Positions 7,471-63,809 of a DNA stretch of 64,000 bases are shown here, piece by piece. Source of the DNA: Candidatus Woesearchaeota archaeon. GTDB taxonomy: Archaea > Nanobdellota > Nanobdellia > Pacearchaeales > GW2011-AR1. The notes below the pieces were generated by a model. The model saw only the letters and a list, made by a program, of their open reading frames with translations, did no database searches and had not been told where the DNA came from. The stretch spans positions 33,956-97,955 of the forward strand of contig CAYORV010000001.1 of NCBI GenBank assembly GCA_964406515.1, written 5' to 3'. The translations under genes were made by a program, and so were the position numbers. Positions within the stretch are counted from its first letter, which is position 1. Each line of letters opens with the position of its first letter.

Positions 7471-7492
7471 AATTATATTTTATAAAAAAGAG

Positions 7493-9217: not shown

Positions 9218-9240
9218 TAGTAAAAGTAATGTATATAGTA

Positions 9241-9261
9241 TTCCTCAACAATCTTTAAAAG
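9241..9261 (+). promoter_or_regulatory. BRE/TATA-like promoter motif (ttcctcaacaatcTTTAAAAG)
   Basis: ~27-34 bp upstream of the ATG at 9288. Near-identical copies at 11977 and 42262. Confidence 0.55.
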
Positions 9262-9287
9262 AAAAGAGTATCTAAATAATAAAAAGG

Positions 9288-11965: not shown

Positions 11966-11976
11966 AATATGTATTC

Positions 11977-11997
11977 TTCCTCAACAATATTTAAAAC
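11977..11997 (+). promoter_or_regulatory. BRE/TATA-like promoter motif (ttcctcaacaatATTTAAAAC)
   Basis: ~34 bp upstream of the ATG at 12030. Confidence 0.5.
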
Positions 11998-12029
11998 AAT
12001 TAGATTTTTAAAGAAAATAATAACATAAA

Positions 12030-47388: not shown

Positions 47389-48815
47389 AATAATTTATTT
47401 TGCTTTATAAGAATTTGTATTCTTCTTTTTTCATTTAGTGTTTTCAGATCTCTTAAGGTTTTGTCTAATTTTGATTTCATTTCTCTTGTAATCTCTTTAT
47501 TTTTTTCAGCTAAATTTATATTTTCGTCCGGATCTTTTTCTAAATCATATAATGCGGTAATTGGTCCGTGCGTTGTATTACAGAGACAACACACAGAATT
47601 CTCTTTTTCAGGAGATTCCATATATTTATATTTTTTTGTTCTAATCGCTCTTCTTTTTATTCCTGCTGCATTTCCCTCTAAAATGATAGATTCTCTAATC
47701 TCTTCATCTTTTCCAAATAAGAGTGGAAATAAACTTTTACCATCAAATAATAAGGGGTCATATTTTATGCCGATTAAATCTAAAACTGTTGGAGCAAGAT
47801 CTTTTGATTGAATTAATGCTTCAACTTTTTTATTTTTTGGAATTTCTCCCCCAAAAATTATTAAGGGTATGCTAAAATTTGCATCGTATACTCCAGTATT
47901 ACTCAAACACAACACATGCTCACAAGGATCCATTCCATGATCTGCAAACAAGAAAACTATTGTGTCTTTTAGCAAGTTTTCATTTTTTAAGGTGTCAATT
48001 ATTTTTTCTATTAAAAAATCATCATAAAAAATGGCTGTATCATATTTTGCTATTAATCCTTCAAAAGTTTCATCAGACTTAAAACTATTCTTAGTCATCT
48101 CTATCGCTTTTTTATTATAACCTTCTGCAGAGTTTAATGCTTCAAATATCTTTTTACCTTCTTTAGTTGAAGTAAATTTATTATTCAACCAATGAGGAAA
48201 CATGTATGGGCCATGAGTCTCTTGATAATGTAAACAAAGAAAAAAATTATTTTCTTTATTTTGTTTTATTATCTCTATTGCATTGTTTGTGATTATTTCT
48301 CCATTATTATTGAATCGAATTTTGCTTTCCAATTTTTTTGGAACAATGTGGGTGTTGTGCAAAATAGATTTAAATAAATTGTACATCAATGGTTTTTTTT
48401 TGATAGATCTAATTAAACCCCATTTTTTTGATATGTCTAAATTATTTTGCTCAAAATAATAATCAAACCCCATTTTTTGCCAACCCCACAATTTTCTTGG
48501 AAAATGTGTTTTATAACCATTTTTTTGAAGTATTTCTGATAAGAAAACCCCTCCTGTCTCGAAAAAATAATCCATTTCCCTTTGTGTTGGATAATGCATA
48601 AAATCTTGTAATAAAAGATGTCTTCCACTGAGAATTGAGAAAAAAGATTTATGGGTGCCATTAGATACTGAGAAAAAATTTTTGAATAATACTCCTTGAC
48701 TTGCATAAGAATCTATATTTGGAGAAGTATTTCTTTCATATCCATAACAACCTAAGTTTTTTGGTCTTAAACCATCTATTGATAAAAAGATTATGTTTGG
48801 TTTTTTATTTTCCAT
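47385..48815 (-). CDS. Sulfatase-family (PF00884-type, AP superfamily) enzyme with Gly-Thr at the FGly position (Thr-nucleophile phosphotransferase/hydrolase type)
   Basis: 'PNIIFLSIDGLRPKNLGCYG...SVSNGTHKSFFSILSGRH' aligns with the sulfatase 'C-T-P-S-R' block but reads G-T-H-K-S. 'FADHGM'. Start taken at ATG 48815 (MENKKPN, matches the paralog); the track start at 48830 is a TTG. Confidence 0.65.
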   Translation of the reverse strand: MENKKPNIIFLSIDGLRPKNLGCYGYERNTSPNIDSYASQGVLFKNFFSVSNGTHKSFFSILSGRHLLLQDFMHYPTQREMDYFFETGGVFLSEILQKNGYKTHFPRKLWGWQKMGFDYYFEQNNLDISKKWGLIRSIKKKPLMYNLFKSILHNTHIVPKKLESKIRFNNNGEIITNNAIEIIKQNKENNFFLCLHYQETHGPYMFPHWLNNKFTSTKEGKKIFEALNSAEGYNKKAIEMTKNSFKSDETFEGLIAKYDTAIFYDDFLIEKIIDTLKNENLLKDTIVFLFADHGMDPCEHVLCLSNTGVYDANFSIPLIIFGGEIPKNKKVEALIQSKDLAPTVLDLIGIKYDPLLFDGKSLFPLLFGKDEEIRESIILEGNAAGIKRRAIRTKKYKYMESPEKENSVCCLCNTTHGPITALYDLEKDPDENINLAEKNKEITREMKSKLDKTLRDLKTLNEKRRIQILIKQNKLL

Positions 48816-48816
48816 T

Positions 48817-49104
48817 TCACATATATCCAAGATCTTCTAAACTTTCCTTCAAATCTGCTTCTTCCTCTCCGCTGTACCCCTTTCTCTTCTTATCTTCTTC
48901 ATCCCACCGAACATTTCCCTTAATGCCTGCTTCCTCTTCTTTTGTATATCCTTTTCTTTCTGTTTCCCTTCCAGAAAACATCTGTTCTAAAATAAAAAGC
49001 AAGTAATCTTGAATTGATTTAAAATTTGTTTGTTTTATCCTCTCGTCTAATTTTTGTTTTAATTCTTCGGGGATTGAAATAATTATTTCAGCTGTCATCT
49101 TCAC
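48817..49104 (-). CDS. Small acidic RHH-like protein (family member 2)
   Basis: 'IIISIPEELKQKLDERIKQTNFKSIQDYLLFILEQ'. 'GYTKEEEA...GYSGEEEADLKESLEDLGYM' repeats. Confidence 0.4.
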   Translation of the reverse strand: MKMTAEIIISIPEELKQKLDERIKQTNFKSIQDYLLFILEQMFSGRETERKGYTKEEEAGIKGNVRWDEEDKKRKGYSGEEEADLKESLEDLGYM

Positions 49105-50531
49105 AATAATTTATTTTTCTTTATAAGAATTTGTATTCTTCTTTTTTCATTTAATTTTTTCAAATCTCCTAAAGTTTTATCTAATTTTGATTTCATTTCT
49201 CTTGTAACTTTTTTATTTTTTTCAGCTAAATTTATATTTTCGTCCGGATCTTTTTCTAAATCATATAATGCGGTAATTGGTCCGTGCGTTGTATTACAGA
49301 TTCCACATACAGTGTGCTCTTTTTCAGGGGATTCCATATATTTATATTTTTTTGTTCTAATTGCTCTTCTTTTTATTCCTGCATTTTGTTCTTCCATAAT
49401 GATAGAATCTCTAATCTCTTTATCCCGACCAAATAAAAGCGGGAATAAACTTTTACCATCAAATGATAAAGAATCGTACTTTATTCCAATTAAATCAAGA
49501 ACTGTTGGAGCAAGATCTTCTAACTGGGTCAGTGCTTTAACATTTTTGTTTTGGGGAATTCCACTGCCAAAAATTATTAGGGGGATATTAAAAGAGACAT
49601 CATACACCCCCTCATTGTTGAAATAAACTTCATGTTCTCCAAGGCTTATCCCATGATCAGCGAATAAAAAAATGATAGTATCCTTTAGTAAATTCTCTTT
49701 TTTCAAAGTCTCAATTATTCTTCCTATCAATAAATCATCATAAAAAATGGCTGTATCATATTTTGTGGTTAATCCTTCGATGGTCTCATCAAATTTCCAA
49801 CAACCCCTTGAAAAATCTATATCTTTTTTATTATACCCTTCCATAGAATTTAATACCTCAAAGATTTTTTTACCCCCCGAGGGGATAGTGAATTTTTTAC
49901 TAAGAGCATAGGGAAACATATGGGGAACATGAGCATCATCATAATGTAACCATAAAAAAAAGTTGTTGTTTTTATTTTGTTTTATTATTTCTATTGCTTC
50001 ATTTGTCATTCTTTCTCCATTATTATTAAATCTTATTTTGCTTTCCAACCTTTTTGGGGTAAGATGAGTATTATGCAAAATAAATTTGAAGAAATTGTAT
50101 ATTAATGGTTTTTTTTGGAGAGATTTTATTAAATTCCATTTTTTTGATGCTTCTAAACTATCTTGTTCAAAAAAATAATCAAATCCTTTTTTTTGCCAAC
50201 CGAATAATTTTTCTAAAAAATGTGTTTTATAACCATGTTTTTGGAGTATTTCTGATAAGAGAACCCCCCCTGTATCAAAAAAAGAATTCATTTCTCTTTT
50301 AGAGGCATAATTCCCAAAATCTCTTGCTAAAATATGCCTTCCTCCGAGAATAGAGGAGAAAGATTTGTGAGTAACTGAGTAATACGAAAAAAAATTTTCG
50401 AATAATACTCCTTGGCTTGCATAAGAATCTATATTTGGGGAAGTATCTCTTTTATATCCATAACAACCAAGATTCCTTGGCCTTAAACCATCTACAGATA
50501 AAAAAATTATATTTGGTTTTTTATTTTCCAT
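49101..50531 (-). CDS. Sulfatase-family enzyme, tandem paralog of 47385..48815
   Basis: 'MENKKPNIIFLSVDGLRPRNLGCYG...' ~70% aa identity to the paralog, including long identical nucleotide runs. Confidence 0.65.
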   Translation of the reverse strand: MENKKPNIIFLSVDGLRPRNLGCYGYKRDTSPNIDSYASQGVLFENFFSYYSVTHKSFSSILGGRHILARDFGNYASKREMNSFFDTGGVLLSEILQKHGYKTHFLEKLFGWQKKGFDYFFEQDSLEASKKWNLIKSLQKKPLIYNFFKFILHNTHLTPKRLESKIRFNNNGERMTNEAIEIIKQNKNNNFFLWLHYDDAHVPHMFPYALSKKFTIPSGGKKIFEVLNSMEGYNKKDIDFSRGCWKFDETIEGLTTKYDTAIFYDDLLIGRIIETLKKENLLKDTIIFLFADHGISLGEHEVYFNNEGVYDVSFNIPLIIFGSGIPQNKNVKALTQLEDLAPTVLDLIGIKYDSLSFDGKSLFPLLFGRDKEIRDSIIMEEQNAGIKRRAIRTKKYKYMESPEKEHTVCGICNTTHGPITALYDLEKDPDENINLAEKNKKVTREMKSKLDKTLGDLKKLNEKRRIQILIKKNKLL

Positions 50532-50616: not shown

Positions 50617-50835
50617 ATGGATAAAAAAAGAGAATATGGAACAGTATCATTACCCTTGCCACTAATAACTTCTATTAAAGATAAGATTGAAGGAACAGGA
50701 ATACATTCTGTTTCTGCTTATATTTGTTTTATTCTTAGACAGATTCTTTCTTCTCCAGAAGAGAGTGATACTCCTTTAGACCGAAAAACAGAAGAAGAGA
50801 TTAAAAAGAGATTAAAAAAATTAGGCTATATCTAA
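50617..50835 (+). CDS. Small RHH-like protein (family member 3, single C-terminal repeat)
   Basis: 'VSAYICFILRQILSSPEES...KTEEEIKKRLKKLGYI' shares the helix and the C-terminal 'EEE.xK.L.xLGYI' with the other two. Confidence 0.35.
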   Translation: MDKKREYGTVSLPLPLITSIKDKIEGTGIHSVSAYICFILRQILSSPEESDTPLDRKTEEEIKKRLKKLGYI

Positions 50836-50898
50836 TAAAATTTATTACCGAGGAATACTAAATAAGATTTAAAAAGTAATTATATATAATTATATACA

Positions 50899-52317
50899 AT
50901 GGCAGAGGTTTCAAAAAAGAACGTGAGTAAAATAATGTTTCTAACTCCTAGATATACTTTGTTTAAAAATGATGTTAGAAGATGTGTGACTCCTCTTGGA
51001 TTAGCTTATTTAGGAGCATACTTGGAAAGAGAAGGTTATGAAGTAAAAATTCTTGATGTTGCTAATGAAGGGTATAATAATATTAAACCCAATTGTGAGT
51101 TTATTACTTTTGGTTTAAATGATGAAGAAATTAAAGAAAAAATCAAAGAATTTCAACCAGATATTGTTGGAGTTTCTTGTATATTTTCGACACAAGCAGA
51201 GAATGCAAAAGAGATTCTTAAGCTTGTTAAAGAAATTGATTCTGAAATTTTTACGATGATTGGGGGTTCTCATCCAACTTATGATTTATTAAATATTTTA
51301 GATAAAAATTATGTTGATTTTGTGGTGATGGGAGAAGGAGAATTGCCTGTTTCCCAATTACTGCTTGCATTAAATGAAGGAAAAGACCTATCTAAAATTG
51401 GGGGTCTTGCATACAAGTCAAACGGAAATAAAATAATAAACACCAACAAACAATATGTTGAAAACTTAGATGAATTAGCCTTTCCTGCGAGACATCTCTT
51501 AAATATGGATATGTATTTTAAGATTAATGCTCCACAAAACCCATATCCACAGGGAAAAAGGGTTGCTCAAATAATTACATCAAGGGGTTGCTCAGCGAAA
51601 TGTGTTTTTTGTACAACTACTAATTTTTGGGGGAATCGCCATAGAGGAAGAAGTGCTGAAAAAGTAATTGAAGAAATAAAGGAAATGAAGGAAAAATATA
51701 ATATAGATGAAATTCAAATCACAGATGATAATTTTACATTGAACAAAGAAAGAGCTATGCAAATTTTAGAAGGTATTAAGAATTTGAATTTATATTGGTG
51801 TGCTCCCCAAGGGATTGCTGTTTGGGCCCTAGACGAAGAATTATTGGAAAAGATGAAGGAAAGTGGTTGTTATCAATTGACTTTTGCTGTTGAAAGTGGT
51901 AATCAAAAAGTGCTGAATGAAATTGTGAAAAAGCCATTAAATCTTCAAAAAGTTAAACCTCTTGTCAAAAAAGCCAAGGAACTTGGAATTAAAGTTCATT
52001 CTTTTGCTATTTGTGGCTTACCTGGAGAAACAATAGAAAATATGCAAGAAACCTATGATTTTGTAAAAAATTGTAATTTTGATAGTGCTTCTTTTTTTGT
52101 TGCTACTCCCCTAATTGGTTCTGAATTATTGGAAACTTGTAAAAGAGAAGGTTGCTTAAGAAAAGAAATGACTTGTAAGGACCAATTGTTTAAGATTGGG
52201 AATATCTCAACTAAAGAATTTACTGCTAAACAAGTTCAGGAAATTTGTGCTAAGTTTAACAAGGAATATAATAAAAATGATACCAGGGAGAAAAAATTTG
52301 AAGATGAAAAATATTGA
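50899..52317 (+). CDS. Cobalamin-binding radical SAM enzyme (Fom3/PhpK-like position in a phosphonate operon)
   Basis: 'KIMFLTPRY...' B12-binding N-terminus. '[15 protein letters not shown]'. Overlaps the cytidylyltransferase-PEP mutase fusion gene by 14 nt. Confidence 0.7.
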
Positions 52318-53638
52318 AAATAAAAAAAGTGAAGATAAACCAAAAAAGATTTATGTGGCTATGTGTGCAGATTTGTTGCATCATGGACATATTAACATTA
52401 TAAAAGAAAGTAGGAAATTGGGAGAAGTTGTAGTTGGTTTGCTTACAGATGAGGCCATTGCGAGTTATAAAAGAGTTCCTCTTATCCCTTATGAACAAAG
52501 GAAAATAATTGTTGAGAATATAAAAGGTGTAAAAGAAGTTGTGGCTCAGGAAAATTTTGATTATGTTCCTACACTTAAAAAAGTGAGACCAGATTATGTT
52601 GTTCACGGAGATGATTGGAAAACAGGAATTCAAAGGAAGGTTCGGCAAAGAATTATAGATGTGCTTAATGAATGGGGAGGTAAAATTGTAGAAATACCTT
52701 ATACCAAAGGCATGTCCTCCACAGGACTACAAGGAAATGTAAAAGAAATAGGAATCACTCGAGAAATGAGAACGAAAAGATTAAGGAGGTTGCTTGAATT
52801 TAAACCACTGGTAAAAATTTTAGAATCCCATAATGGGTTGACAGCTATGATCGTAGAAAATACATTCATTGAAGAAAATAATGTAAAAAAAGAATTTGAT
52901 GGTGTATGGGTAAGTAGTTTAACTGACTCTGTCTCCAAAGGAAAGCCAGACACAGGAATTGTAGATTTGACTTCTAGATTGAGTACAATAAATCATATTT
53001 TAGAAGTGACTACAAAACCAATAATTCTTGATGGAGACAATGGGGGGGAAATTGAACATTTTTCATCCATGGTAAGAACATTGGAAAGATTGGGAGTTTC
53101 TGCAGTAATAATTGAAGATAAAATTGGATTCAAAAGAAATTCTTTATTTGGAACAGAAGCAAACCAATCACAAGAAGAGGTTTCAAAATTTGCAGAGAAA
53201 ATTTCTGCAGGGAAAAAAGTACAATTAGAAGATGATTTTATGATTATCTCGAGGATTGAAAGTTTAATTTTAGGAAAAGGAATTTATGATGCTCTTATTA
53301 GGGCAAAAGCATATATTGAAGCTGGAGCAGATGCCATAATGATTCACAGTAAAGAAAGAGATGGGAAAGAAATTTTAGAATTTTGTAAACAATATTCTCA
53401 AATTGAAAATAAAGTGCCCTTGGTCGTTGTGCCCTCTACATATAGCCATATTAAGGAAGAAGAATTAATCAATGCTGGAGTAAATATGGTTATCTATGCC
53501 AACCATTTATTAAGAAGTGCATATCCTGCAATGAAAAAAACAGCTGAAAAAATTTTATTGAATGAGAGAGCGTATGAGTGTGAAGAAGATTGCATGCCTA
53601 TCAAAGATCTTCTAAATTTAATTTCTGAAGGAAGATGA
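52304..53638 (+). CDS. Bifunctional cytidylyltransferase (HxGH) / phosphoenolpyruvate phosphomutase (Fom1-like architecture)
   Basis: N-term '[35 protein letters not shown]'. C-term '[15 protein letters not shown]', '[11 protein letters not shown]', '[18 protein letters not shown]', '[15 protein letters not shown]' and '[14 protein letters not shown]' match PepM/ICL-superfamily blocks. The ATG at 52304 is preferred; the track start at 52196 would lie inside the upstream gene. Confidence 0.8.
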
Positions 53639-54756
53639 TATCCTGCTCTGATTTAGCACACGTGTTTAAGGAAAATGATTTGACTTATTTTGCCGGTGTG
53701 CCTGATTCTACTTTTAAGGACTGGATGAGTTTTTTAGCAGATAGAAATAATTTAACAAACCGAATTGCATGTAATGAATGTGAGGCTATTGCTCTTGCAA
53801 CGGGATATCATCTTTCAACAAAAAATGTTGGAGTTGTTTATATGCAAAATTCTGGTTTAGGAAAAACAGTGAATCCTTTGACATCTTTAGCATCAAAAGA
53901 AGTTTATGGAATTCCTCTTATTTTAATGATTGGTTGGAGAGGAGAACCTGGAAAAAAGGATGAACCCCAACATAAAATGATGGGGAGAATTATGGAATCT
54001 CAACTTAAAACACTAGAAATTCCTTATTCAGTTCTCCCAGATAATATTGAAGATGTAGAAGAAACAATACGATGGGCTAAACAGACTGCAAAACAAAACA
54101 ACTATGCTTCAGCAATAATTATTAAAAAAAATACCTTGGAAAAATATGTCTCTGAGAATTCTACTGAAACAAATTATGAAATGTCAAGGGAAGAGGCAAT
54201 AAAAACTGTGATTGATAATTTGGAAGGAAATGAGGCAATTGTTTCAACAACAGGAAAAACTTCAAGAGAATTATTTGAATATCGGATTGCTCAAGGAGAA
54301 AAAGTCAGAGATTTTTTGACTCTTGGAAGCATGGGATGTTCTGCTTCAATTGTAGCAGAAGTGGCTTTGCAAAAACCTGATAAAAAGATTTATTGTTTTG
54401 ATGGAGATGGAGCCGTGTTGATGCAAATGGGGGCATTGTCCACTATTGGAAAATATAAACCAAAAAACTTTACTCATGTGATTTTTGATAATGCTTCTTA
54501 TGATTCAACAGGAGGGCAACCAACGAATTCAAGGAATGTTGATTTTGCACAGGTGGCAGAATCTTGTGGATATGTTAATACAAGAGTTGTTAAGACAAAA
54601 AGTGATTTAGGAAGAGTTGTTGAGAAATTAAGAAATTTAGAAGGGCCTAACATAGTTGTTGTTAATATTAATAAAGGATCGAGGAAGAATCTTGGAAGAC
54701 CCACAACAACACCCGAAGAAGATAAAACATCATTTATGGAATTTTTAGAAAAATGA
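53635..54756 (+). CDS. ppd: Phosphonopyruvate decarboxylase (TPP-dependent)
   Basis: '[16 protein letters not shown]' (Ppd N-terminal block). '[18 protein letters not shown]...[16 protein letters not shown]' TPP motif. ATGA overlap with the PepM fusion gene. Confidence 0.8.
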
Positions 54757-55856
54757 AACAACAAGAGTATTTTGACTTTGGAAGTTTAGAGAATCTTAGA
54801 GATATTTTGGAATATGAAAAATCAAGGAATGTTTTTCTTGTTACTGGAAGAGATTCTTATGAAAAATGTGGAGCTAAAGAAAAAATAGAAACGATCTTAG
54901 GAAATTCAGAAATTGGTTTTACAAGATTTTGTGATTTTTTTTCTAATCCTAACATAAAAGATATACAAAAAGGGTGTGATTCATTTAAGAAGAAAAACTA
55001 TGATCTTATTATGGGTGTTGGTGGTGGAAGTGTTATTGATACTGCAAAAGCCATTAAATTATTCAATTGCCCAAAAGCAGAGAAAATTCCTTTGATCGCG
55101 ATACCAACGACTGCCGGAAGCGGAAGTGAAGCTACGTGGTTTGTTGTTTTTTACAAAGGAAAAGAAAAACAATCTTGGGGAAATGAAACAATTACATTGC
55201 CCAATTATTCAGTCATTGACCCAAAATTAACAATGTCTCTGTCAAGAAAGGTTGCTGCGAGTACTGGTATGGATGCATTGGCTCAAGCAGTTGAATCATA
55301 TTGGTGCATTAATTCAACAGATGAATCAAAAAGAATTGCAAGACAATCGATAAAATTAACCTTAAAAAATTTGGAAAGAGCTGTTAATGGGAAAGGTAAG
55401 AGAGCAAGAGGAAATATGGCGTTATCTTCGAATCTTGCAGGAAAGGCCATTAACCTCACAAGGACTACTGCTTGTCATTCAATAGCTTATCCCATTACTT
55501 CTTATTTTGATGTTGCCCATGGGCATGCTGTTGGTTTAACTTTAGGAGAAATGCTGACTTATAATTCTAAAGTAACTGAAGGAGATTGTAATGATGGTAG
55601 GGGATTTGAGTATGCTAGAAAAACGATTAATGAATTAGTTGAGATATTTGAAGTAGGGTGTGTTGATGGAACTTCTCGTAGAATTAAAAATTTGATGGAT
55701 TCAATTGGATTAGAGACACGATTATCTGAAATAGAAATTGGCGAACAAGGAAGGGAGATTATAATCGACAAAGGATTTAAACCAGAAAGGGTTAAAAACA
55801 ATCCAAGGATATTAACAAGGAATGGATTGAGGAAAATTTTGGAGAAGATTGCTTAA
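54753..55856 (+). CDS. Iron-containing (group III) alcohol dehydrogenase (phosphonoacetaldehyde reductase, PhpC/FomC-like)
   Basis: 'DLIMGVGGGSVIDTAKAI' Fe-ADH glycine motif plus His-rich C-terminus ('CHSIAYP...HGHAVG'). ATGA overlap with ppd. Confidence 0.75.
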   Translation: MKQQEYFDFGSLENLRDILEYEKSRNVFLVTGRDSYEKCGAKEKIETILGNSEIGFTRFCDFFSNPNIKDIQKGCDSFKKKNYDLIMGVGGGSVIDTAKAIKLFNCPKAEKIPLIAIPTTAGSGSEATWFVVFYKGKEKQSWGNETITLPNYSVIDPKLTMSLSRKVAASTGMDALAQAVESYWCINSTDESKRIARQSIKLTLKNLERAVNGKGKRARGNMALSSNLAGKAINLTRTTACHSIAYPITSYFDVAHGHAVGLTLGEMLTYNSKVTEGDCNDGRGFEYARKTINELVEIFEVGCVDGTSRRIKNLMDSIGLETRLSEIEIGEQGREIIIDKGFKPERVKNNPRILTRNGLRKILEKIA

Positions 55857-57235
55857 TGAAAAAAGTATTTGTGTTTGGAATTGATGGTGCAATGCCTGAA
55901 AAGATTTTTGGCGAGTGGTTAGATGAGTTGCCAACCATCAAAAAACTTATGGGAGAAGGATGTTATGCTAAATTGAATTCGACTATTCCTCCTTTAACTG
56001 CTGTGGCTTGGACCTCTATGAGAACAGGTAAACCACCTGCTGAACATGGTCTTTTTGAATATATCTTTAGAAAAAAGAACTCTTACACAGATATGGGAGT
56101 TATATCTGCAAATAATATCCAAGAAAAATCTATTTGGCATATTGTATCTGAACACAATAAAAAATCAATAGTTTGTCTTGTTCCAATAACTTGGCCAATT
56201 AAACCTTTCACTGGAACAATTGTATCTGGATTTCTCACTCCAGATATTGAATCTGAATATACTTTTCCACGGGAATTCAAAAAAGAAATAAAATCTCTTT
56301 TTGACGAACCATTTATTATAGATCTCTATGATCATAGAAAACTATCTAAAAAAGAACTCTTAGAAAAATGTATTAAAATTACTGAAATGCATTTTAAATT
56401 AATGAAATATTTAATTCGAAAAAAGGAATGGGATTTATTTTTTGGAATAATTGCCGCGAGTGATTGGGTAAATCATAGTTTTTTCAAATATATGGATAAA
56501 GAACATAGAAATTATGAACCAGATTCTGAATTTAAAAATACTTTAAAAAATTATTATAAATTTGTAGATAAGAATCTTGGAGAATTGATAGAACTACTTC
56601 CAAAAGATACTACTATCATTATTGTTTCTGATCATGGTATAAAAAGGATGCATAATAGATTTAACTTGAGTGATTGGCTTTTGAAAAAAGGTTATTTGGT
56701 TTTAAAAGAAAAATTTGAAACAAAACTCCCTCTCAACTTAGAAATGATTGATTGGGAAAAAACAAGGGCTTGGGCGATTGGAGCATATGAAGGGCAGATA
56801 TTTATTAATTTAAAGAATCGAGAACCTGGAGGAATTGTAGACGAAAAAGATTATGATGAATTGGTGGAAGAGATTCAAGAAGGATTGTCTCAAATAAAAG
56901 GAGATCGAGGAGAGGAATTAGATACAAAATTCTTCAAGAAGAAAAAAGATTTTGTTGGGAAAAATAACCAACACGCTCCAGATCTGATGGTTTATTTTGA
57001 TGATTTGCAATATGGATGTAATAATTCTTTTGTCCACAATGAAACAATGTGGAATATTGAGACTCTGAAGGGGAAGGATGATGCGGGACATTCGAGACAA
57101 GGAATGTTTATAATGAACAAGTCTAATCAAAAGGGGTATATTGGAGAAATTGATATTTTAGATGTTGCTCCTACAATATTAAACCTATTAAAAGTAACAA
57201 TGCCCAGAGATCTTAAAGGAAAAATCATAAAATGA
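55856..57235 (+). CDS. Nucleotide pyrophosphatase/phosphodiesterase (NPP, PF01663-type) AP-superfamily enzyme
   Basis: 'VFGIDGAMPE', 'NSTIPPLTAVAWTSMRTGKPPAEHGLF' (T-x-P...TG..P..HG NPP block), 'VSDHGI'. TAATG overlap with the Fe-ADH. Confidence 0.6.
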   Translation: MKKVFVFGIDGAMPEKIFGEWLDELPTIKKLMGEGCYAKLNSTIPPLTAVAWTSMRTGKPPAEHGLFEYIFRKKNSYTDMGVISANNIQEKSIWHIVSEHNKKSIVCLVPITWPIKPFTGTIVSGFLTPDIESEYTFPREFKKEIKSLFDEPFIIDLYDHRKLSKKELLEKCIKITEMHFKLMKYLIRKKEWDLFFGIIAASDWVNHSFFKYMDKEHRNYEPDSEFKNTLKNYYKFVDKNLGELIELLPKDTTIIIVSDHGIKRMHNRFNLSDWLLKKGYLVLKEKFETKLPLNLEMIDWEKTRAWAIGAYEGQIFINLKNREPGGIVDEKDYDELVEEIQEGLSQIKGDRGEELDTKFFKKKKDFVGKNNQHAPDLMVYFDDLQYGCNNSFVHNETMWNIETLKGKDDAGHSRQGMFIMNKSNQKGYIGEIDILDVAPTILNLLKVTMPRDLKGKIIK

Positions 57236-57310
57236 TTTCTAAGCCTCCAAAATTTCATTGCCTATGAATACTCAATAAACTTTAAATAGTATTCCTAAAT
57301 AATTATTTTT

Positions 57311-58687
57311 ATGAGAAATAAAAAGGTGTTTGTTTTAGGGATTGATGGTGCTCCTCCCGAACTAATCTTCAATGAATGGTTGGATGATTTACCCGTAATT
57401 AAAAAATTAATGCTAGAAGGAACTTATGCAAAATTAAATAGCACCATTCCTCCTGTGTCTGCGGTTGCTTGGATATCGATGTGTACTGGAAAGTTGCCTT
57501 CTGATCATGGGGTTTTTGATTATATATGTAGAAAAAATAATTCCTATGAGGACATAAGTGTAGTTTCAACTAATAATGTTCAGGAAGAATCTGTTTGGGA
57601 AATTCTTTCTAGATATAATAAAAAATCAATTTTTTGTTTAATTCCAGTAACTTGGCCAATTAAACCCTTTGATGGCATTGGGGTTAGCGGATTTCTCACT
57701 CCGAGAGTTAAAAGAGATTATGTTTATCCTTCGCACCTACAACAAGAAGTTGAATCTCTTTTTGATGAACCTTTTATAATAGACATAGAAAAACATAGAG
57801 ATTTATCAAAAGAAGATTTGCTTGAAAAAATTTATAAAATGACTGAAATGCATTTTAAATTGATGAAGCATATGATAAAAAATAAACAATGGGATTTGTT
57901 CTGGGGAGTGATTATGGGAAGCGATAGAATGAATCATAACTTTTGGAGGTTCTTTGATAAGGGGCATAGAAGATATGAAAATAATCTTGAATTTGAAACT
58001 GCATTAAAAGATTATTATAAATTCCTGGATAAAAATCTTGGAGAATTAATTCAATTACTTGATGATGATACAACAATCATTGTAGTCTCGGACCATGGAA
58101 TACAGAAAATGGATACTAGGGTGAATTTAAGTGATTGGCTTATTAAAGAAGGATACTTGGTCCTTAAAGAACCTGTTAAAGAAAAAATGAAATTTACTAT
58201 GGATATGGTTAATTGGGACGAAACAAGGGTTTTTGCAAGGGGTGCATGGGATGGACAAATTTTTCTTAATTTAAAAGGCAGAGAAGAAAAAGGAATTGTG
58301 AATGAGGACGAATATGAAAATCTTATTGAAGAGTTAGAAATGAAATTAAAACAAATAAAAGGGGATGATGAAAAAGTTTTGGATACAAAGATTTTCAAGA
58401 AAAAAGATTATAGCGGGAAATTTGATAACATTGCGCCAGACATGATTATTTATTTTGATAATTTGAATTATGGATGTAATACAACTTTAATAGGAAATCC
58501 TACTTTTTGGTCTCCTCAAACAGCAATTGGTAGTGATGATGTCACTCATTCGAAAAAAGGGATATTTATTACTAATAATTCTCAGAAAGGAAACATTGGA
58601 GAAATTGGAATTATAGACATTGCTCCAACAATCCTAAATGAATTAGAAGTGCCAATCCCCAAAGATATGAAGGGGGAGATCTTATGA
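57311..58687 (+). CDS. NPP-family AP-superfamily enzyme, tandem paralog
   Basis: 'VLGIDGAPPE...NSTIPPVSAVAWISMCTGKLPSDHGVF...VSDHGI'. ~50% identical to 55856..57235. Confidence 0.6.
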   Translation: MRNKKVFVLGIDGAPPELIFNEWLDDLPVIKKLMLEGTYAKLNSTIPPVSAVAWISMCTGKLPSDHGVFDYICRKNNSYEDISVVSTNNVQEESVWEILSRYNKKSIFCLIPVTWPIKPFDGIGVSGFLTPRVKRDYVYPSHLQQEVESLFDEPFIIDIEKHRDLSKEDLLEKIYKMTEMHFKLMKHMIKNKQWDLFWGVIMGSDRMNHNFWRFFDKGHRRYENNLEFETALKDYYKFLDKNLGELIQLLDDDTTIIVVSDHGIQKMDTRVNLSDWLIKEGYLVLKEPVKEKMKFTMDMVNWDETRVFARGAWDGQIFLNLKGREEKGIVNEDEYENLIEELEMKLKQIKGDDEKVLDTKIFKKKDYSGKFDNIAPDMIIYFDNLNYGCNTTLIGNPTFWSPQTAIGSDDVTHSKKGIFITNNSQKGNIGEIGIIDIAPTILNELEVPIPKDMKGEIL

Positions 58688-59139
58688 AAGTTGTTTATAC
58701 ATATGTTGTTGCAGATTTATTGCATATGGGGCATGTTCTTTATTTAGAAAATGCTAGAACCTTCGGAGATAAATTAATTGTGGGGGTTTTAACAGACAAA
58801 GCTGCAATGGAAAAAAAACCAAAACCTGCCTTGGCTTTTAGTGAAAGAATGAGATTAGTAAAGGCACTTAAGTGTGTTGATTGTGTTGTTGCTCAAGATG
58901 ATTATTCTCCAATAAATAACATAAAATCAATTAAACCCGATGTCTTAATTGAGAGTTCTAGTCATTCTGAAGAAAATTTGCTGAAAGTAAAAGAACTTGC
59001 GAATGCAATTTCATGTAAGGTTATTGTAATGCCTTATTATCCTGGTCAAAGTTCAACTCAGATTAAGGAAGGTATAAGAAACAATATTGCAGATTCAGGA
59101 AATCAAGATAGTTTGAATAAGGAACCAAGAAGGGAGTGA
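58684..59139 (+). CDS. Cytidylyltransferase (TagD/LicC-like, HxGH)
   Basis: 'VVYTYVVADLLHMGHVLYLENARTFGDKLIVGVLTD'. ATGA overlap with the upstream NPP gene. Confidence 0.65.
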   Translation: MKVVYTYVVADLLHMGHVLYLENARTFGDKLIVGVLTDKAAMEKKPKPALAFSERMRLVKALKCVDCVVAQDDYSPINNIKSIKPDVLIESSSHSEENLLKVKELANAISCKVIVMPYYPGQSSTQIKEGIRNNIADSGNQDSLNKEPRRE

Positions 59140-59140
59140 A

Positions 59141-60340
59141 ATGGGAAAAGATAAATTCTGGCAGATTTGGAGTTCTTATGCAACCTATTATTTTGGCAGA
59201 GTTAATTTATCTATTGTAATTCCTGTTTTACTTGCTACTTATGGTTTAACGAAATATCATCTTGGACTTGTGGCAAGTGGTTTCTTTTTTGCATATGCTA
59301 TAGGGCAATTTTTACATGGCCAATTATCTGAAAGATTTAATCCCTATACTTATTTGGCAATTGGTTTAATTGGTTCTGCTATAATGAATTTATTTTTGGG
59401 ATTTTCCATGGGATTTTTTTGGATATTATTTATTGGAGAAATAATGGATGGAAGTTTTCAGTCTATGGGTTGGAGTTCTGCTGTAAGGGCTAATGCGGAA
59501 AATTCAAGGAAATTGGGAAAGAATATAGAAAAAAGATCTTGTGCTCTTGGGACTTCTTATCAAATTGGAAATTCAATAACTTGGTTGGTCTCTTCATTAG
59601 TTGTTGGGTTATTTGGATGGCAATGGGGATTCTTGACAGCGAGCGGATTTATGTTCTTGAGAGGTATAACATTATTGATAAATAGGCCAAGAATGAAATT
59701 TGAAAAACAGAAAGTTCAAAAACAATTAAAGAAAACTATTCAACCACCCATAGTCATTGCTGGATTTGCAATGATGCTATTGAATATTGTGAGATATGGT
59801 ATTATTGTGTGGATTCCAACCTATTTAATTGAAGTTCAGGGCTCAAGTATTATTGGTGCAGGATTGAAGATTTTCTTAATCCCTGTCGCAGGGGTTTTTG
59901 GAACCCTTATTTATAATAAATCGAAGATGAACAGGGATTTTTTAACAATTATCTTTTTAGCTGTTTTAAGCTCCATATTCATATTTTATGGCTATTTATC
60001 TAACTTAATGTCTGTTGTTGTATTAATCCTAAGTGGATTTTTCTTATATGGTCCCCATGTTTTTTTAGTTTCAACCTTTCCAAGCAAATTTTTAAAGGAT
60101 AATGTTGTTGGAGCTTCTACTGGATTCATAGATGGTATGGCTTATGTTGGGGCTATTATTGTTGGATTGCTTGTTCCTTTTTTGCTGGATATTAGTAATT
60201 GGGCATTAGTATTCTTATCTTGGTCAACTTGCTGTTTAATGATTATCTTATTAGTCATGTTCTTATATGTTGATGCACAAGTAGATGGGAAAAAAGCAAA
60301 AGAAAGAGATATATTGAATCTTAAAGAAGCCATAGAATAA
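59141..60340 (+). CDS. Major facilitator superfamily transporter
   Basis: ~12 TM segments. 'GQLSERFNPY' MFS motif A-like loop. Confidence 0.55.
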   Translation: MGKDKFWQIWSSYATYYFGRVNLSIVIPVLLATYGLTKYHLGLVASGFFFAYAIGQFLHGQLSERFNPYTYLAIGLIGSAIMNLFLGFSMGFFWILFIGEIMDGSFQSMGWSSAVRANAENSRKLGKNIEKRSCALGTSYQIGNSITWLVSSLVVGLFGWQWGFLTASGFMFLRGITLLINRPRMKFEKQKVQKQLKKTIQPPIVIAGFAMMLLNIVRYGIIVWIPTYLIEVQGSSIIGAGLKIFLIPVAGVFGTLIYNKSKMNRDFLTIIFLAVLSSIFIFYGYLSNLMSVVVLILSGFFLYGPHVFLVSTFPSKFLKDNVVGASTGFIDGMAYVGAIIVGLLVPFLLDISNWALVFLSWSTCCLMIILLVMFLYVDAQVDGKKAKERDILNLKEAIE

Positions 60341-60341
60341 T

Positions 60342-61895
60342 CTATTTTAAGTGTTTGTTTCTTTTGAATTTTTTAAAAATAGTTTTTATTATATACAAAT
60401 CATGTTCATCTAAACATTTTGTTGTTAAGAGTAAAAGAGTATAAACCGCTAGGAAAAAAATACCGCAAAGGATTAGAGATAGCAAGTTTGTTTCCATAAA
60501 AGATTTAACAATCAGGAGTAATATCGCAGACACGATTGTTATTAATGTTATTCTAACCATCTTTTTTCTTAATGGAATAATTGAAAGATATTTTTTAGCT
60601 TGTATTAGGAACAATACATTTAGGATTACTAAAGAGGTCATTGTGGCAAAACCTGCTCCTGTAATTCCATACAATGGTACTAATACGAAATTAAGGATTG
60701 CGTTTAGAATCCCTGCGAAAATTAAATCTATCAAAAGAAGTTTAGATTTTCCTTTCATAGAGAGGAGTTCTTGCGAAATTCCGAAAAGTGTTGAGAATAA
60801 AACTCCAATAGATAAAAATCTTAGAGCATTTACTGCTACAAGATACTCCTGACCAAAAAGGAGATTAATAACTGCTCCGGGAAAAATAATAAAAAGAACA
60901 AAAATTGGCAGAACCATCATAAAAACCCATTTACCAACCTGTTGACTTAATTGTTTTACTATTTCAAGTCTTCCTTTAGAGAATTCTTTTGTTACAAGAG
61001 GGAAAAAAAGTTGGGAAAAAAACATCATTGGCAAAGACAATAACATGGCTATTGGGATAGCAGCATTATAAAAACCAACATCTTTTGCAGTTTGGAATAT
61101 TCCAATCATAAAAGAATCAACCCAATAAAAAATGAATGTGACAACGCCATAAAAAACTAATGGCCAAGAATAAGAAAACATTTCTTTAAAGGCTTTTTTA
61201 GTTTCTAAGTTTTTTATTTTCTTCTTTGAACTAAAGATTTCAGAAAGTGTAATCTTACAAACAAAATAAGAGGCGATGAATATTGAGAGGGTTCCAATTA
61301 AATAAGATATTGGAACAGATTTTGAATTTATCCCAAAAAAGATTAACAGAATTAAAATTGCTAGTTTGATAAAATTTCCTAAAATATTTGCGATAAAAGA
61401 GAACCACCCTATTTTTTCATAAGCTCTTAAAACAGATAATAAAGTTTCTCCTAAAACCGCTAGAGGAACAGTAATACTAAAAATTTTTAGAAAAATAATT
61501 AAATTAGGATCAGAGAATATTTTCAATGCAATAAATTCGGAAAAAAAGAATAATAAAATACCTGCTATGATACTTGTAATGATTAAGATAATAAAGGAGA
61601 TTTTTATTAAACCTCGAATTTTCCCTTTTTCTCCTTTCCCCCTTAGTAGAGAGACATGTCTTAGAAGTCCTTGTTTAATTCCCAAATTAGAAATGACTCT
61701 AAACCAACTAAATAGCATAACTGATAAGGCAAATAAACCATAGATTTCTGGACCATAATGCCGAGCAATTACTATCCTATATCCATAAAAAATTATCTTT
61801 GATAAAAAAAGTCCAATAAAAACTATTATTGAAGATTTGGCCAGTAATTTTAATCCGGTTTTTATCCCTGCTTCATTGTCTTTCTCTAAGTTCAT
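60342..61895 (-). CDS. Wzx-like polysaccharide/oligosaccharide flippase (MOP superfamily)
   Basis: 517 aa, 12-14 TM helices. N-terminal 'LLAKSSIIVFIGLFLSKIIFYGYRIVIARHYGPEIYGLF', typical of polysaccharide-biosynthesis (Wzx) proteins. Confidence 0.65.
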   Translation of the reverse strand: MNLEKDNEAGIKTGLKLLAKSSIIVFIGLFLSKIIFYGYRIVIARHYGPEIYGLFALSVMLFSWFRVISNLGIKQGLLRHVSLLRGKGEKGKIRGLIKISFIILIITSIIAGILLFFFSEFIALKIFSDPNLIIFLKIFSITVPLAVLGETLLSVLRAYEKIGWFSFIANILGNFIKLAILILLIFFGINSKSVPISYLIGTLSIFIASYFVCKITLSEIFSSKKKIKNLETKKAFKEMFSYSWPLVFYGVVTFIFYWVDSFMIGIFQTAKDVGFYNAAIPIAMLLSLPMMFFSQLFFPLVTKEFSKGRLEIVKQLSQQVGKWVFMMVLPIFVLFIIFPGAVINLLFGQEYLVAVNALRFLSIGVLFSTLFGISQELLSMKGKSKLLLIDLIFAGILNAILNFVLVPLYGITGAGFATMTSLVILNVLFLIQAKKYLSIIPLRKKMVRITLITIVSAILLLIVKSFMETNLLSLILCGIFFLAVYTLLLLTTKCLDEHDLYIIKTIFKKFKRNKHLK

Positions 61896-62003: not shown

Positions 62004-63809
62004 ATGGATGAAGAGGAAATAGAATTATTTGTTCCTGGGAGATTATGTCTATTTGGAGAACATTCTGATTGGGCTGGAGGACATAGAAGGCAGAATCCAG
62101 CTATTGAAAAAGGTTATACCATTGTGGCTCCGACTAATCAAGGAAATTATGCTAGAGTTAAGAAAATTGATGAGCCAATTTTTCGTTTTAAGAGCTCTTT
62201 ATCTGATGAGAAGATGGAGGTTCGATTAGAACCACAAGCATTATTGAAAATTGCGGAAGAGGGTGGGTTGTTTAGTTATGTTGCAGGTGTTGTGCATGAA
62301 ATAATTTGTAGTTATCATGGTTTTATGGAACAAGGAATTGAAATAGATAATTACAAAACCGATTTGCCAACCAAAAAGGGAATTTCAAGTTCTGCTTCTA
62401 TTTGTGTTTTAGTGGCTAAAGCATTTAATGAAATTTACAATTTAGGATTTACTAACAAAAGGATTATGGAACTTGCATATTTTGGAGAAATAACAACTCC
62501 TTCAAGATGTGGAAAGATGGATCAAGCTTGTGCTTATAATAAACCTATTTTGATGACTTTTGATGGAGATAAATTAAATGTTGAAGAGTTGAAATTAGAG
62601 AAGGAGATTAATATTTTGGTAGTTGATTTAAACAGGGGGAAAGATACTGTGAAGATTCTTGCTGATTTAAATGAGGGGTTTCCTTGGCCGAATAGTGAAG
62701 TGGAGAGGAGTATTCACCAATATCTCGGAAAAATGAATAAGAGCATTGTTATTTCGGCAAAAAAGGCATTAGAAAAAGGAGATGCTGTTAAGGTTGGTTG
62801 TATGATGGAATTGGCCCAAAACTTTTTTGATGAATATTTAATTCCTGCTTCTGGTGAACTTGAAGCTCCAACACTTCATTCTGTTTTAGGGATGCAAGAA
62901 ATAAAAGAATTTATTTATGGTGGGAAATGTGTTGGGAGTGGGGGAGATGGAAGTGCTCAATTAATCTGTAAATCTATTAGAGTTAGAGAGAAGGTTAAAG
63001 AAATTTTGACAATGAAAGGGTTTAATTGTTTTGATTTAGATTTAAAGAGTTCGATAGAACCCCCTAATAATAAAATCACTGCTGTAATCCCTGCAGGAGG
63101 TTTTGGATTAAGATTATACCCTTTGACTGAAAATCAACCGAAATCATTATTAGAAATTCAAGGAAAACCATTAATAGATTATACGATTGATAAGATAAAT
63201 GAAATTGAAAACATTGATAAGATAATTATAACAACAAACAATAAGTTTTATGAGAAATTTAAAGAATGGGGCAAAGAAAAAGGAGAAAAAATAAAAATAA
63301 TTAATAATGGTGTGAACAATGAACAGGAAGCCCTAAGTGGATTTGGAGACTTAATGCTTGCCATAAATAATGAAAAAGTTGAAGGGGATATCTTAGTCCT
63401 TGGCGGGGATAATCTTTTTGACTGTTCTCTAAAAGAGATTTATAAAATTTTTAGGGGCGAGGAAAAAGATCTCGCGGTTTGCTATGATGTAATGAATATT
63501 GAAAAAGCAAAAAGTTTGGGTGTTGCAGAAATTAAAGATAACTTAATCAGAAATTTTAAAGAAAAACCAGAAAATCCAAAATCCACCATATGTTCTACAA
63601 GCGCTTACTTCTACAAAAAAGAAACCCTACAATTGATTAAAGAGTTTGCAGAAAAACATCCTCGTGGACATTTAGGCACTATTTTAGAATATCTTTTCCA
63701 AAGAGTTCCAATTTATGCATATATCATAAAAGATAAATGGATAGATATAAATGATAAGACTGCTTTGAAATTAGCTGATTCCATTACTTATCGGGATTTA
63801 TCTTTTTGA
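62004..63809 (+). CDS. Bifunctional GHMP sugar-1-kinase (N-terminal) / sugar-1-phosphate nucleotidyltransferase (C-terminal)
   Basis: 'LFVPGRLCLFGEHSDWAGG' and 'LPTKKGISSSASICVLVAKA' (galactokinase-like GHMP motifs). C-term 'AVIPAGGFGLRLYPLTENQPKSLLEIQGKPLI'. Confidence 0.65.
   Translation: MDEEEIELFVPGRLCLFGEHSDWAGGHRRQNPAIEKGYTIVAPTNQGNYARVKKIDEPIFRFKSSLSDEKMEVRLEPQALLKIAEEGGLFSYVAGVVHEIICSYHGFMEQGIEIDNYKTDLPTKKGISSSASICVLVAKAFNEIYNLGFTNKRIMELAYFGEITTPSRCGKMDQACAYNKPILMTFDGDKLNVEELKLEKEINILVVDLNRGKDTVKILADLNEGFPWPNSEVERSIHQYLGKMNKSIVISAKKALEKGDAVKVGCMMELAQNFFDEYLIPASGELEAPTLHSVLGMQEIKEFIYGGKCVGSGGDGSAQLICKSIRVREKVKEILTMKGFNCFDLDLKSSIEPPNNKITAVIPAGGFGLRLYPLTENQPKSLLEIQGKPLIDYTIDKINEIENIDKIIITTNNKFYEKFKEWGKEKGEKIKIINNGVNNEQEALSGFGDLMLAINNEKVEGDILVLGGDNLFDCSLKEIYKIFRGEEKDLAVCYDVMNIEKAKSLGVAEIKDNLIRNFKEKPENPKSTICSTSAYFYKKETLQLIKEFAEKHPRGHLGTILEYLFQRVPIYAYIIKDKWIDINDKTALKLADSITYRDLSF

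Follow-up and report, generated by a model that had tools for sequence, protein, structure and literature searches.

Tandem NPP-like metalloenzymes beside nucleotidyltransferases in an archaeal phosphonate and glycan locus as candidate group transferases

The stretch analysed here, hereafter the window, comprises 64,000 nucleotides (G+C ~30%) of contig CAYORV010000001.1 from Candidatus Woesearchaeota archaeon, and the relatives of its proteins carry the labels Pacearchaeota, Woesearchaeota or Nanoarchaeota, which makes a DPANN archaeon the most likely source. The entire window is a glycan-assembly island with many glycosyltransferases and sugar-nucleotide enzymes. Our subject is three genes on its forward strand. 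Two encode paralogous metalloenzymes of the nucleotide pyrophosphatase/phosphodiesterase (NPP) branch, NPP-A (55856–57235, 459 aa) and NPP-B (57311–58687, 458 aa), and the third encodes a stand-alone HxGH nucleotidyltransferase (CTase; 58684–59139, 151 aa). A first-pass annotation had called three such genes, and all exist where it placed them, two with a PF01663 domain and one with a PF01467 domain.

NPP-A is the last gene of a phosphonate module, whose other genes also lie on the forward strand. A B12-binding radical S-adenosylmethionine (SAM) methyltransferase (50899–52317), recognised by Pfam and NCBIfam, stands in the pathway position of Fom3. Among curated families it comes closest to the Sden_1168 P-methyltransferase, scoring 353 bits where the cut-off is 575, and the assignment is at the family level only. 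The next gene is a fusion of cytidylyltransferase and phosphoenolpyruvate (PEP) mutase of Fom1-like architecture (CyTase::Ppm; 52277–53638; Pfam, and TIGR02320 at 398 bits, above the cut-off), whose start we adopted from L001, a metagenome contig of 213 kb, part of which is identical to the window. It is followed by phosphonopyruvate decarboxylase (Ppd; 53635–54756; TIGR03297 at 448 bits, above the cut-off) and an iron-dependent alcohol dehydrogenase (Fe-ADH; 54753–55856; Pfam). The best NCBIfam match of the latter, Phn_Fe-ADH at 167 bits, is below the cut-off; the enzyme is a probable phosphonoacetaldehyde reductase, yielding 2-hydroxyethylphosphonate (2-HEP).

The stop codon of Fe-ADH overlaps the NPP-A start by 1 nt (TAATG), and the NPP-B stop overlaps the CTase start by 4 nt (ATGA). 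Between NPP-A and NPP-B lies an AT-rich spacer of 75 nt (57236–57310, forward strand). Because of this spacer, the translational coupling to the Fe-ADH gene that had been suggested for all three genes holds for NPP-A alone, and the CTase is instead coupled to NPP-B. The spacer contains a TATA-like TTTAAATA at 57281–57288, 30 nt upstream of the NPP-B ATG, and is a candidate archaeal promoter. This call is made from position, since the motif occurs 18 times on the two strands of the 64 kb and is not enriched in the window.

NPP-B is the first gene of a second module, continued by the CTase and a major facilitator superfamily (MFS) transporter of the organophosphate:phosphate antiporter type (59141–60340, forward; PgtP/GlpT/UhpC-like by Pfam and NCBIfam). 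A Wzx-type polysaccharide flippase on the reverse strand (60342–61895; Pfam) ends the locus. The operon at 50617–60340 has the early gene set of the fosfomycin type, namely Fom1-, Fom2-, FomC- and Fom3-like genes (CyTase::Ppm, Ppd, Fe-ADH and B12-radical-SAM). Neither of the fosfomycin late genes, for the cupin epoxidase HppE and the DUF402 protein FomD, was found in it by Pfam or NCBIfam.

NPP-A and NPP-B match PF01663 with E-values of 1.4e-42 and 3.7e-41 (147 and 142 bits; cut-off 23), while no curated NCBIfam model scores above its cut-off for either. Over 457 aa they share 80% similarity and 60% identity, the latter above the ~50% first estimated. An AlphaFold2 model of NPP-A built with 91 homologs has a mean pLDDT of 95 and a pTM of 0.93. 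Its top 50 Foldseek matches in the PDB are all ENPP, NPP or PhnA, which together with PF01663 upholds the earlier assignment to the NPP type of the alkaline phosphatase superfamily. The best are snake-venom phosphodiesterase, ENPP1/3/5/6, Xanthomonas (Xac) NPP, autotaxin and PhnA, with E-values of 3e-18 to 3e-15, TM-scores of ~0.55–0.61 on the query and identities of 13–16%. About 40% of the chain, around residues 120–200 and 265–400, is a family-specific insertion that is unmatched.

The catalytic set of NPP-A is predicted to be D10, T48, D203, H207, D259, H260 and H412. The six metal ligands among them (D10, D203, H207, D259, H260 and H412) do not vary across the alignment of 91 sequences. 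All seven positions, D-(S/T)-D-H-D-H-H, are kept in 35 of the 35 relatives from genomic loci, and so neither the nucleophile nor a metal ligand is missing from any of them. At position 48, at least 90% of the aligned sequences have Ser and NPP-A has Thr ('PPL-T-AVAW'); the equivalent in NPP-B is Ser50 ('PPV-S-AVAW').

Thr48 aligns with PhnA T64, mutated as T64A in 3t02, in a single-sequence alignment, and with NPP3 T205, mutated as T205A in 6f2y, in a family-profile alignment. It thus aligns with the Thr that in the NPPs heads the helix following strand 2, and Ser50 is a conservative variant. By these alignments the nucleophile is Thr48 or Ser50 and not the Thr of the Thr-x-Pro block ('S-T-I-P') that the first-pass annotation had named. 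Of the two other blocks named with it, DHG (D259-H260-G261) is invariant, but family members do not keep the His of 'TG..P..HG'.

No signal peptide, transmembrane segment or hydrophobic segment was found in NPP-A or NPP-B. Because of this, and because the first metal-ligand Asp already comes at residue 10, we place both proteins in the cytoplasm. Judged by sequence and model, they are soluble cytoplasmic NPP-branch proteins of the alkaline phosphatase superfamily with an intact two-metal site, and are predicted to be competent enzymes. They form part of a divergent cytoplasmic subfamily of NPP/PF01663 that lacks a characteristic NPP Asn.

Xanthomonas NPP, ENPP1/3/5/6 and snake-venom phosphodiesterase have the same core fold, the same six metal ligands and the same nucleophile position as NPP-A. 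Both they and the window proteins are expected to cleave nucleotide-linked phosphoanhydrides or diesters. Unlike the NPPs, the window family has mostly Ser rather than Thr, is cytoplasmic rather than secreted, occurs in biosynthetic operons and is fused to donor-activating enzymes.

PhnA (3szy) is a good fold match and the sole PDB sequence match for the single NPP protein (E 0.013). It too belongs to the NPP branch, and it acts on a phosphonate. However, PhnA cleaves the C-P bond in catabolism, and we saw no sign of C-P cleavage for the window NPPs. An identification of NPP-A or NPP-B as PhnA was rejected, with TIGR02335 at 25 bits against a cut-off of 408.

A third PF01663 gene of the window (1418–2506, forward) encodes a very divergent protein of 362 aa (E 1e-16) without BLASTP similarity to NPP-A, and was rejected as a close paralog (BLASTP E 0.17). 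It directly follows a gene for a protein of 400 aa (214–1416, forward) with a weak match to Pol-beta-type nucleotidyltransferases (E 0.0035). These two genes may be another nucleotidyltransferase/NPP pair.

The CTase matches PF01467 (E 2.8e-14, 54 bits against a cut-off of 21) with H-M-G-H at residues 14–17, and in the PDB it matches 5x9q (E 6e-17) and the Fom1 CyTase domain 5x3d (E 2e-14). It shares the HxGH type of PF01467 with the Fom1 CyTase domain, HldC (RfaE domain II) and TagD and belongs to their superfamily. It is below the equivalog cut-offs of both rfaE_dom_II/HldC (TIGR02199; 93 against 181 bits) and TagD (TIGR01518; 57 against 165 bits). The former description as TagD/LicC-like is thus right as to the TagD superfamily but not as to LicC, a different family (PF12804) for which Pfam gave no match. 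The CTase is ~30% identical to the window's own Ppm-fused CyTase domain, and it is plausibly a phosphonate-type or organophosphate cytidylyltransferase.

We detected 311 relatives of the CTase, and the best 120 of the 311 are all stand-alone proteins of 104–186 aa and 55–100% identity. Relatives of 52–63% identity occur in other phosphonate operons, in accord with the phosphonate context first ascribed to this gene. One at 63% (P0364) comes from Pacearchaeota, where its operon runs CTase, CTase, a protein of 454 aa with a weak cupin match, radical SAM, Ppm, Ppd and alcohol dehydrogenase. Another at 52% forms a CTase–MFS pair directly upstream of CyTase::Ppm–Ppd (L073), and in L007 the Ppm-fused domain itself is 52% identical to the window CTase. 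Whether or not Ppm is close by, the CTase has the MFS transporter as a conserved partner (L044, L007 and L073). The transporter may import the CTase substrate, such as a scavenged phosphonate, glycerol-3-phosphate or PEP, or export the product.

The phosphonate operon on the Pacearchaeota contigs L125, L126 and L127 (genes at ~4436–12450) has a radical SAM of the rSAM/SPASM type and an Fe-ADH, and adjoins a CDP-alcohol phosphatidyltransferase that hints at a phosphonolipid. The 454-aa protein of the L125 operon has the size and position that we would presume for a dioxygenase of the MpnS/HepD type. It was rejected as a hidden NPP, having no similarity and only the weak cupin match.

This part of the window consists of two juxtaposed modules. 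Module 1 consists of radical SAM, CyTase::Ppm, Ppd, Fe-ADH and NPP-A, and module 2, past the 75-nt spacer, of NPP-B, CTase and MFS transporter. Elsewhere each is found apart from the other. In L042, an NPP-A ortholog of 80% identity (P0002) ends an operon of radical SAM, CyTase::Ppm, Ppd, alcohol dehydrogenase, a second radical SAM and NPP, in which no NPP-B, CTase or MFS transporter was found. In L044, NPP, CTase, HD and MFS genes stand without Ppm; this NPP (P0009) is of the NPP-B clade and 67% identical to NPP-A. In L007, the order is NPP, HD-like, CTase::Ppm and, farther on, MFS, with the NPP-B counterpart 84% and the MFS 89% identical.

The NPP-B clade (L007 and L044) is always together with CTase, HD and MFS. 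In a neighbour-joining tree of 35 sequences, the NPP clades follow the types of context and the Ppm-associated NPPs are not monophyletic, which fits with donor- or acceptor-specific enzymes. Moreover, each module in the window, L042, L044, L007, L005 and L009 has one NPP for one nucleotidyltransferase. From the L042, L044 and L007 arrangements, the tree clades and the spacer with its TATA-like element, our observations indicate that in the window a phosphonate module, with NPP-A as its last gene, adjoins a separate module of NPP-B, CTase and MFS. This accounts for the two copies better than two acceptor positions, as first supposed, since each module has its own nucleotidyltransferase.

The family is huge: searching 1.84 billion representative proteins with its profile gave 18,498 clusters (at 50% identity) with E ≤ 1e-3 and 4,599 with E ≤ 1e-30. 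Some sources annotate relatives merely as 'predicted AlkP superfamily phosphohydrolase/phosphomutase'. Our survey of gene contexts covered 31 genome loci, almost all DPANN, and loci fetched via individual homologs, ~35 in total.

The recurrent neighbours of the NPP genes there are a Thr-type sulfatase-like gene, a nucleotidyltransferase, B12-radical-SAM and HD-domain proteins, glycosyltransferases, methyltransferases and a flippase. The nucleotidyltransferases are of PF01467, or of PF12804/PF00483 fused to a P-loop kinase, an RmlD-like reductase, DUF6564 or an ApgM-type mutase. The homolog loci are glycan-assembly islands with flippases and glycosyltransferases. In L128, the NPP homolog lies between a PMT-like GT-C and glycosyltransferases, near STT3/AglB.

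The family is also fused to a variety of enzymes. NTP_transferase::NPP fusions are P0101 and P0103, the latter in a Ppm/LicD locus (L004), and a B12-radical-SAM::NPP fusion of 1006 aa is in L027. Such fusions and the operon position bear out the tie to cytidylyl or nucleotidyl activation that the first-pass annotation had drawn. Other fusions join NPP to HD (P0115 and P0119), to a SAM methyltransferase (P0192), to a pyruvate-kinase barrel (P0104 and P0126), which might regenerate NTP, and to APS kinase (P0144; APS, adenosine 5′-phosphosulfate). ATP sulfurylase, comprising PUA_2 and PF01747, is present in a PUA::ATP-sulfurylase::NPP protein (P0155) and in an NPP::pyruvate-kinase::PUA::ATP-sulfurylase protein (P0121; L041, 7459–10914). 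P0121 scores 690 bits against the family profile and is therefore of the same subfamily as the window NPPs.

The locus of P0121 has the same layout as the window, with flippase, sulfatase-like gene, small open reading frame (ORF), NPP fusion, radical SAM and GT1 glycosyltransferase. Hence the constant part is a pair of sulfatase-like and NPP-like genes in a glycan island, and the variable part is the enzyme that makes the nucleotide-activated donor, be it CMP-phosphonate, another CDP- or NDP-linked group or APS. We did not find this link of the NPP subfamily to nucleotide-activating enzymes, including those of sulfate activation, in the literature searched.

The two sulfatase-like genes of the window (47385–48830 and 49101–50531) are on the reverse strand and belong to the Thr type of the alkaline phosphatase superfamily. 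Their proteins have T-H-K-S-F where C-x-P-x-R is expected, aligned to S-T-P-S-R of 9bas. That they are formylglycine sulfatases is ruled out by Thr in place of Cys or Ser and by the missing Pro and Arg. They are cytoplasmic and co-occur with NPP homologs in most loci, at least nine in number.

Each sulfatase-like gene is followed by a small ribbon-helix-helix-like ORF on the same strand (47080–47388 and 48817–49104), and a third one, of 72 aa with C-terminal LGYI (50617–50835, forward), is the first gene upstream of the phosphonate operon. They belong to a family of small proteins of 72–105 aa that adjoins sulfatase-like and NPP-like genes, with members in the window (these three ORFs), L042, L044, L007, L036 and L041. 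In L021, L023, L029, L030, L033 and L035, small proteins are encoded directly upstream of the NPP genes. The N-terminus in this family resembles a ribbon-helix-helix ('ISLSKELKQKLE…F.SIQDY..FVLEQ'), the middle is acidic and 'L.DLGY(I/L/M)' is conserved at the C-terminus. The family has no Pfam match, and its members could be regulators, adaptors or carrier proteins.

The rest of the window is rich in related functions. It has at least seven radical-SAM genes, several of them B12-binding, which is unusually dense for a single glycan island; one of those at 1–47083 encodes 729 aa (44894–47083). It also has three more PF01467-type nucleotidyltransferase genes and a GHMP-kinase::NTP-transferase fusion (62004–63809). 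The tRNA and Rfam scans of the window gave no matches.

Several homolog loci have further peculiarities. In L004 (5137–12166), the NTP_transferase::NPP gene adjoins those of a CTP_transf_like::PPDK_N protein and a Peptidase_C26/GATase protein, a combination reminiscent of the O-methyl-phosphoramidate pathway of Campylobacter (Cj1418/Cj1417/Cj1416). This locus also has LicD, Ppm::NTP_transf_3 and an NTP_transferase::aminotransferase::B12-radical-SAM protein of 1090 aa. In L009 (6288–8912), Ppd is fused to a B12-radical-SAM domain (874 aa) and the operon ends with alcohol dehydrogenase and an NPP homolog. The NPP clade of ~40% identity in L021, L023, L028, L030, L033 and L035 has three conserved downstream genes (~367, 360 and 210 aa) without Pfam match, and the NPPs of L022 and L023 have a C-terminal extension of ~350 aa.

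We tentatively lean, with less than even confidence, to the proposal that NPP-A and NPP-B cleave the NMP–X donor made by their partner nucleotidyltransferase and transfer X to a glycan. Here we infer the substrates, the phosphorus atom attacked and a second half-reaction that goes to an acceptor rather than to water.

In module 1, PEP would be turned into phosphonopyruvate, phosphonoacetaldehyde and then 2-HEP by Ppm, Ppd and Fe-ADH, the families being observed and the chemistry taken from the established pathways. The fused CyTase would cytidylylate 2-HEP to CMP-HEP, as Fom1 does, and the B12-radical-SAM enzyme would probably methylate the phosphonate on its CMP handle, as in fosfomycin biosynthesis. 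Thr48 of NPP-A would then attack the phosphonate phosphorus of the CMP-phosphonate, with CMP leaving and a phosphonyl-enzyme forming. A hydroxyl of a lipid-linked or nascent glycan at the cytoplasmic face would resolve this intermediate, and the adjacent flippase would export the decorated glycan. In module 2, the MFS transporter would import or handle a second organophosphate or phosphonate, the CTase would activate it with CTP and NPP-B, using Ser50, would transfer it.

Several lines of argument favour transfer. Simply hydrolysing the donor would gain nothing in the fusions with NTP-transferase or ATP sulfurylase or in the module of importer, CTase and NPP. The family is linked to nucleotide activation by its fusions, each module pairs one NPP with one nucleotidyltransferase, and the loci are glycan-assembly islands. 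The clades are context-specific, and the window has no other transferase candidate of a known type: LicD, TagF-type and CDP-alcohol transferases were searched for within the 64 kb and none was found. Finally, the Thr enzymes of the alkaline phosphatase fold include known group transferases, namely EptA/MCR-1, LtaS and the PF01663-type ethanolamine-phosphate transferases of glycosylphosphatidylinositol synthesis.

These and their kin (EptA/MCR-1, LtaS, OpgB and PigN/O/G, of which the PigN type also matches PF01663) have a one- or two-metal alkaline phosphatase fold. With a Thr nucleophile they move a phospho-alcohol to a glycan or lipid hydroxyl via a covalent intermediate. However, they have membrane anchors, draw on phospholipid donors and work in the ER lumen or elsewhere outside the cytoplasm, whereas the window NPPs are soluble and linked to nucleotide donors. 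No significant NCBIfam match at the family level to the EptA-, LtaS- or Pig-type transferases was found for NPP-A or NPP-B.

The phosphotransferases of the LicD/TagF type usually move phosphocholine, 2-aminoethylphosphonate, glycerol phosphate or ribitol phosphate from CDP or CMP donors to glycans. The role proposed for the NPPs is the same, the step after the cytidylyltransferase in surface-glycan tailoring, although the folds are unrelated. In bacteria, LicD-like phosphotransferases are encoded near PntC cytidylyltransferases, and the steps after PEP mutase have been called enigmatic (Rice et al. 2019, PMC6697681).

Several points weigh against the proposed transfer. Ppm lies within 10 kb in only 6 of the ~35 homolog loci (the window, L004, L005, L007, L009 and L042/L043), and an NPP homolog is in none of 80 metagenome CyTase::Ppm loci. 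These 80 loci, whose CyTase::Ppm proteins are 50–79% identical to that of the window, cover 774 kb in total, 39 of them being at least 8 kb long, and mostly hold Ppd and alcohol dehydrogenase in the same order. Therefore, the NPP-like family is not phosphonate-specific and is no general component of the CyTase::Ppm pathway. We rejected both the NPP as a standard part of CyTase::Ppm clusters, on the 80 loci, and a phosphonate-specific set of homologs, as most loci are without Ppm. The fusion of the same subfamily to ATP sulfurylase and APS kinase likewise counts against phosphonate specificity. Homologs do occur mostly outside phosphonate contexts, but they are not known to have a defined unrelated function.

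The active site also gives pause. The Asn that follows the nucleophile in classical NPPs ('T-F-P-N-H') contacts the transferred phosphoryl group. It is absent here, replaced by 'A-V-A-W' with A51 and W52 invariant, and therefore the chemistry may differ from the NPP model. Canonical NPP chemistry itself is an attack on the nucleotide alpha-phosphate and ends in hydrolysis, not transfer. The known transferases of the superfamily have lipid donors and membrane anchors, unlike NPP-A and NPP-B.

Further against transfer by the NPPs, no characterised close homolog was found in NCBIfam, the PDB sequences or the literature searched. The Thr-type sulfatase-like proteins are plausibly equally good transferase candidates, and one is fused to a cytidylyltransferase (P0466, a CTP_transf_like::sulfatase protein of 767 aa with PF01467). 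Moreover, L004 holds a LicD besides its NTP_transferase::NPP fusion.

A wider form of the proposal, which we regard as possible and rather doubtful, is that the cytoplasmic NPP-like family (COG3379-type PF01663) is an unrecognised class of group transferases. They would install nucleotide-activated anionic groups on lipid-linked glycans before flipping, and the donors would be CMP-phosphonates, CDP-alcohol phosphates and sulfate of the APS or 3′-phosphoadenosine 5′-phosphosulfate (PAPS) type.

The main alternative, which we consider unlikely, makes the NPP enzymes handle-removing or proofreading hydrolases, functional analogs of FomD, that split the CMP-phosphonate, or another NMP–X, into the nucleotide and free X after the radical-SAM step. 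FomD hydrolyses CMP-2-hydroxypropylphosphonate in the fosfomycin pathway, and the NPP gene occupies the step after genes of the Fom1, Fom2, FomC and Fom3 types. FomD is a DUF402 protein with a fold unrelated to NPP, and Pfam shows only PF01663 in NPP-A and NPP-B; we rejected an identity with FomD by fold, and any likeness would be functional. The free product would be re-activated by the stand-alone CTase or exported via the MFS transporter.

Such hydrolysis is what NPP/ENPP enzymes canonically do to nucleotide diesters and anhydrides via a nucleotidyl-Thr intermediate, and the fold matches agree. The operon, with its four early Fom-like genes, yet has no DUF402/FomD. The B12-radical-SAM::NPP fusion of L027 and the radical SAM directly before the NPP-A ortholog of L042 mirror the order of Fom3 then FomD. 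Downstream, the second CTase could re-activate what is released and the adjacent MFS could export a small molecule. However, L042 has NPP-A but no MFS and no second CTase. Hydrolysis would be futile in the NTP_transferase::NPP and ATP-sulfurylase::NPP proteins and in the Ppm-less NPP-CTase-HD-MFS module of L044, and the loci are glycan islands with flippases and glycosyltransferases, not small-molecule clusters.

It is improbable in our view that the family is a general phosphodiesterase or pyrophosphatase of glycan islands, unrelated to phosphonate, which trims NDP-sugars, polyprenyl-pyrophosphate carriers or glycan intermediates linked by phosphodiesters. The NPP gene would then be in the phosphonate operon only since both serve the same surface glycan. 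The scarcity of Ppm among the homolog loci, the 80 CyTase::Ppm loci devoid of NPP and the L128 homolog among glycosyltransferases near STT3/AglB are all as this account expects. Yet it leaves unexplained the repeated fusions to donor-activating enzymes, the overlaps with the alcohol dehydrogenase (1 nt) and CTase (4 nt) genes and the finding that the gene consistently comes last in three Ppm operons that are independent of one another (L005, L009 and L042).

Quite improbable is a pyrophosphatase that removes PPi made by the neighbouring CTase, NTP-transferase or ATP sulfurylase and so pulls the nucleotidyl transfer. These partners all release PPi, and the NPP::pyruvate-kinase::ATP-sulfurylase protein would fit. 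Fusions of ATP sulfurylase, APS kinase and pyrophosphatase occur in some eukaryotes and would be a precedent. But one general enzyme would do for this purpose, whereas there are two diverged tandem paralogs and the NPP clades track context. Where the fusion partner is a B12-radical-SAM enzyme, a SAM methyltransferase or APS kinase, there is no PPi to remove. The active site is typical of NPP diesterases, and NCBIfam and Foldseek gave no match to a pyrophosphatase family.

Very improbable, last, is a phosphomutase like cofactor-independent phosphoglycerate mutase (iPGM) or phosphopentomutase, shifting the phosphate of an imported sugar or alcohol phosphate to give a 1-phosphate for the adjacent nucleotidyltransferase: the phosphohydrolase/phosphomutase label of relatives, the NTP_transferase fused to an ApgM-type mutase domain beside the NPP homolog of L036 and the import, isomerise and activate order of module 2 (MFS importer, NPP-B and HldC-like nucleotidyltransferase) would suit it, but C-P compounds, APS/PAPS enzymes and radical-SAM fusions would leave a mutase nothing to do, and structurally the best-matching proteins are NPP and PhnA rather than iPGM or phosphopentomutase.

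The route of nucleotide-activated phosphonates to surface glycans is unsettled, and nothing of it is known for archaea. The locus offers concrete candidates that are expressible as soluble proteins. In DPANN archaea and in many other lineages, members of this family go together with sulfate-activating and other nucleotidyl-activating enzymes, so a function assigned here could carry over to a very large uncharacterised family.

If the NPPs are plain hydrolases, they would be a FomD replacement with a different fold. If the group-transferase class is true, archaeal phosphonoglycans would have their missing 'phosphonyl transferase', and the family would add a new, non-canonical type of sulfotransferase. 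A function assigned to the family could also reveal how archaea with small genomes attach phosphonate, phospho-alcohol or sulfate groups to their surfaces.

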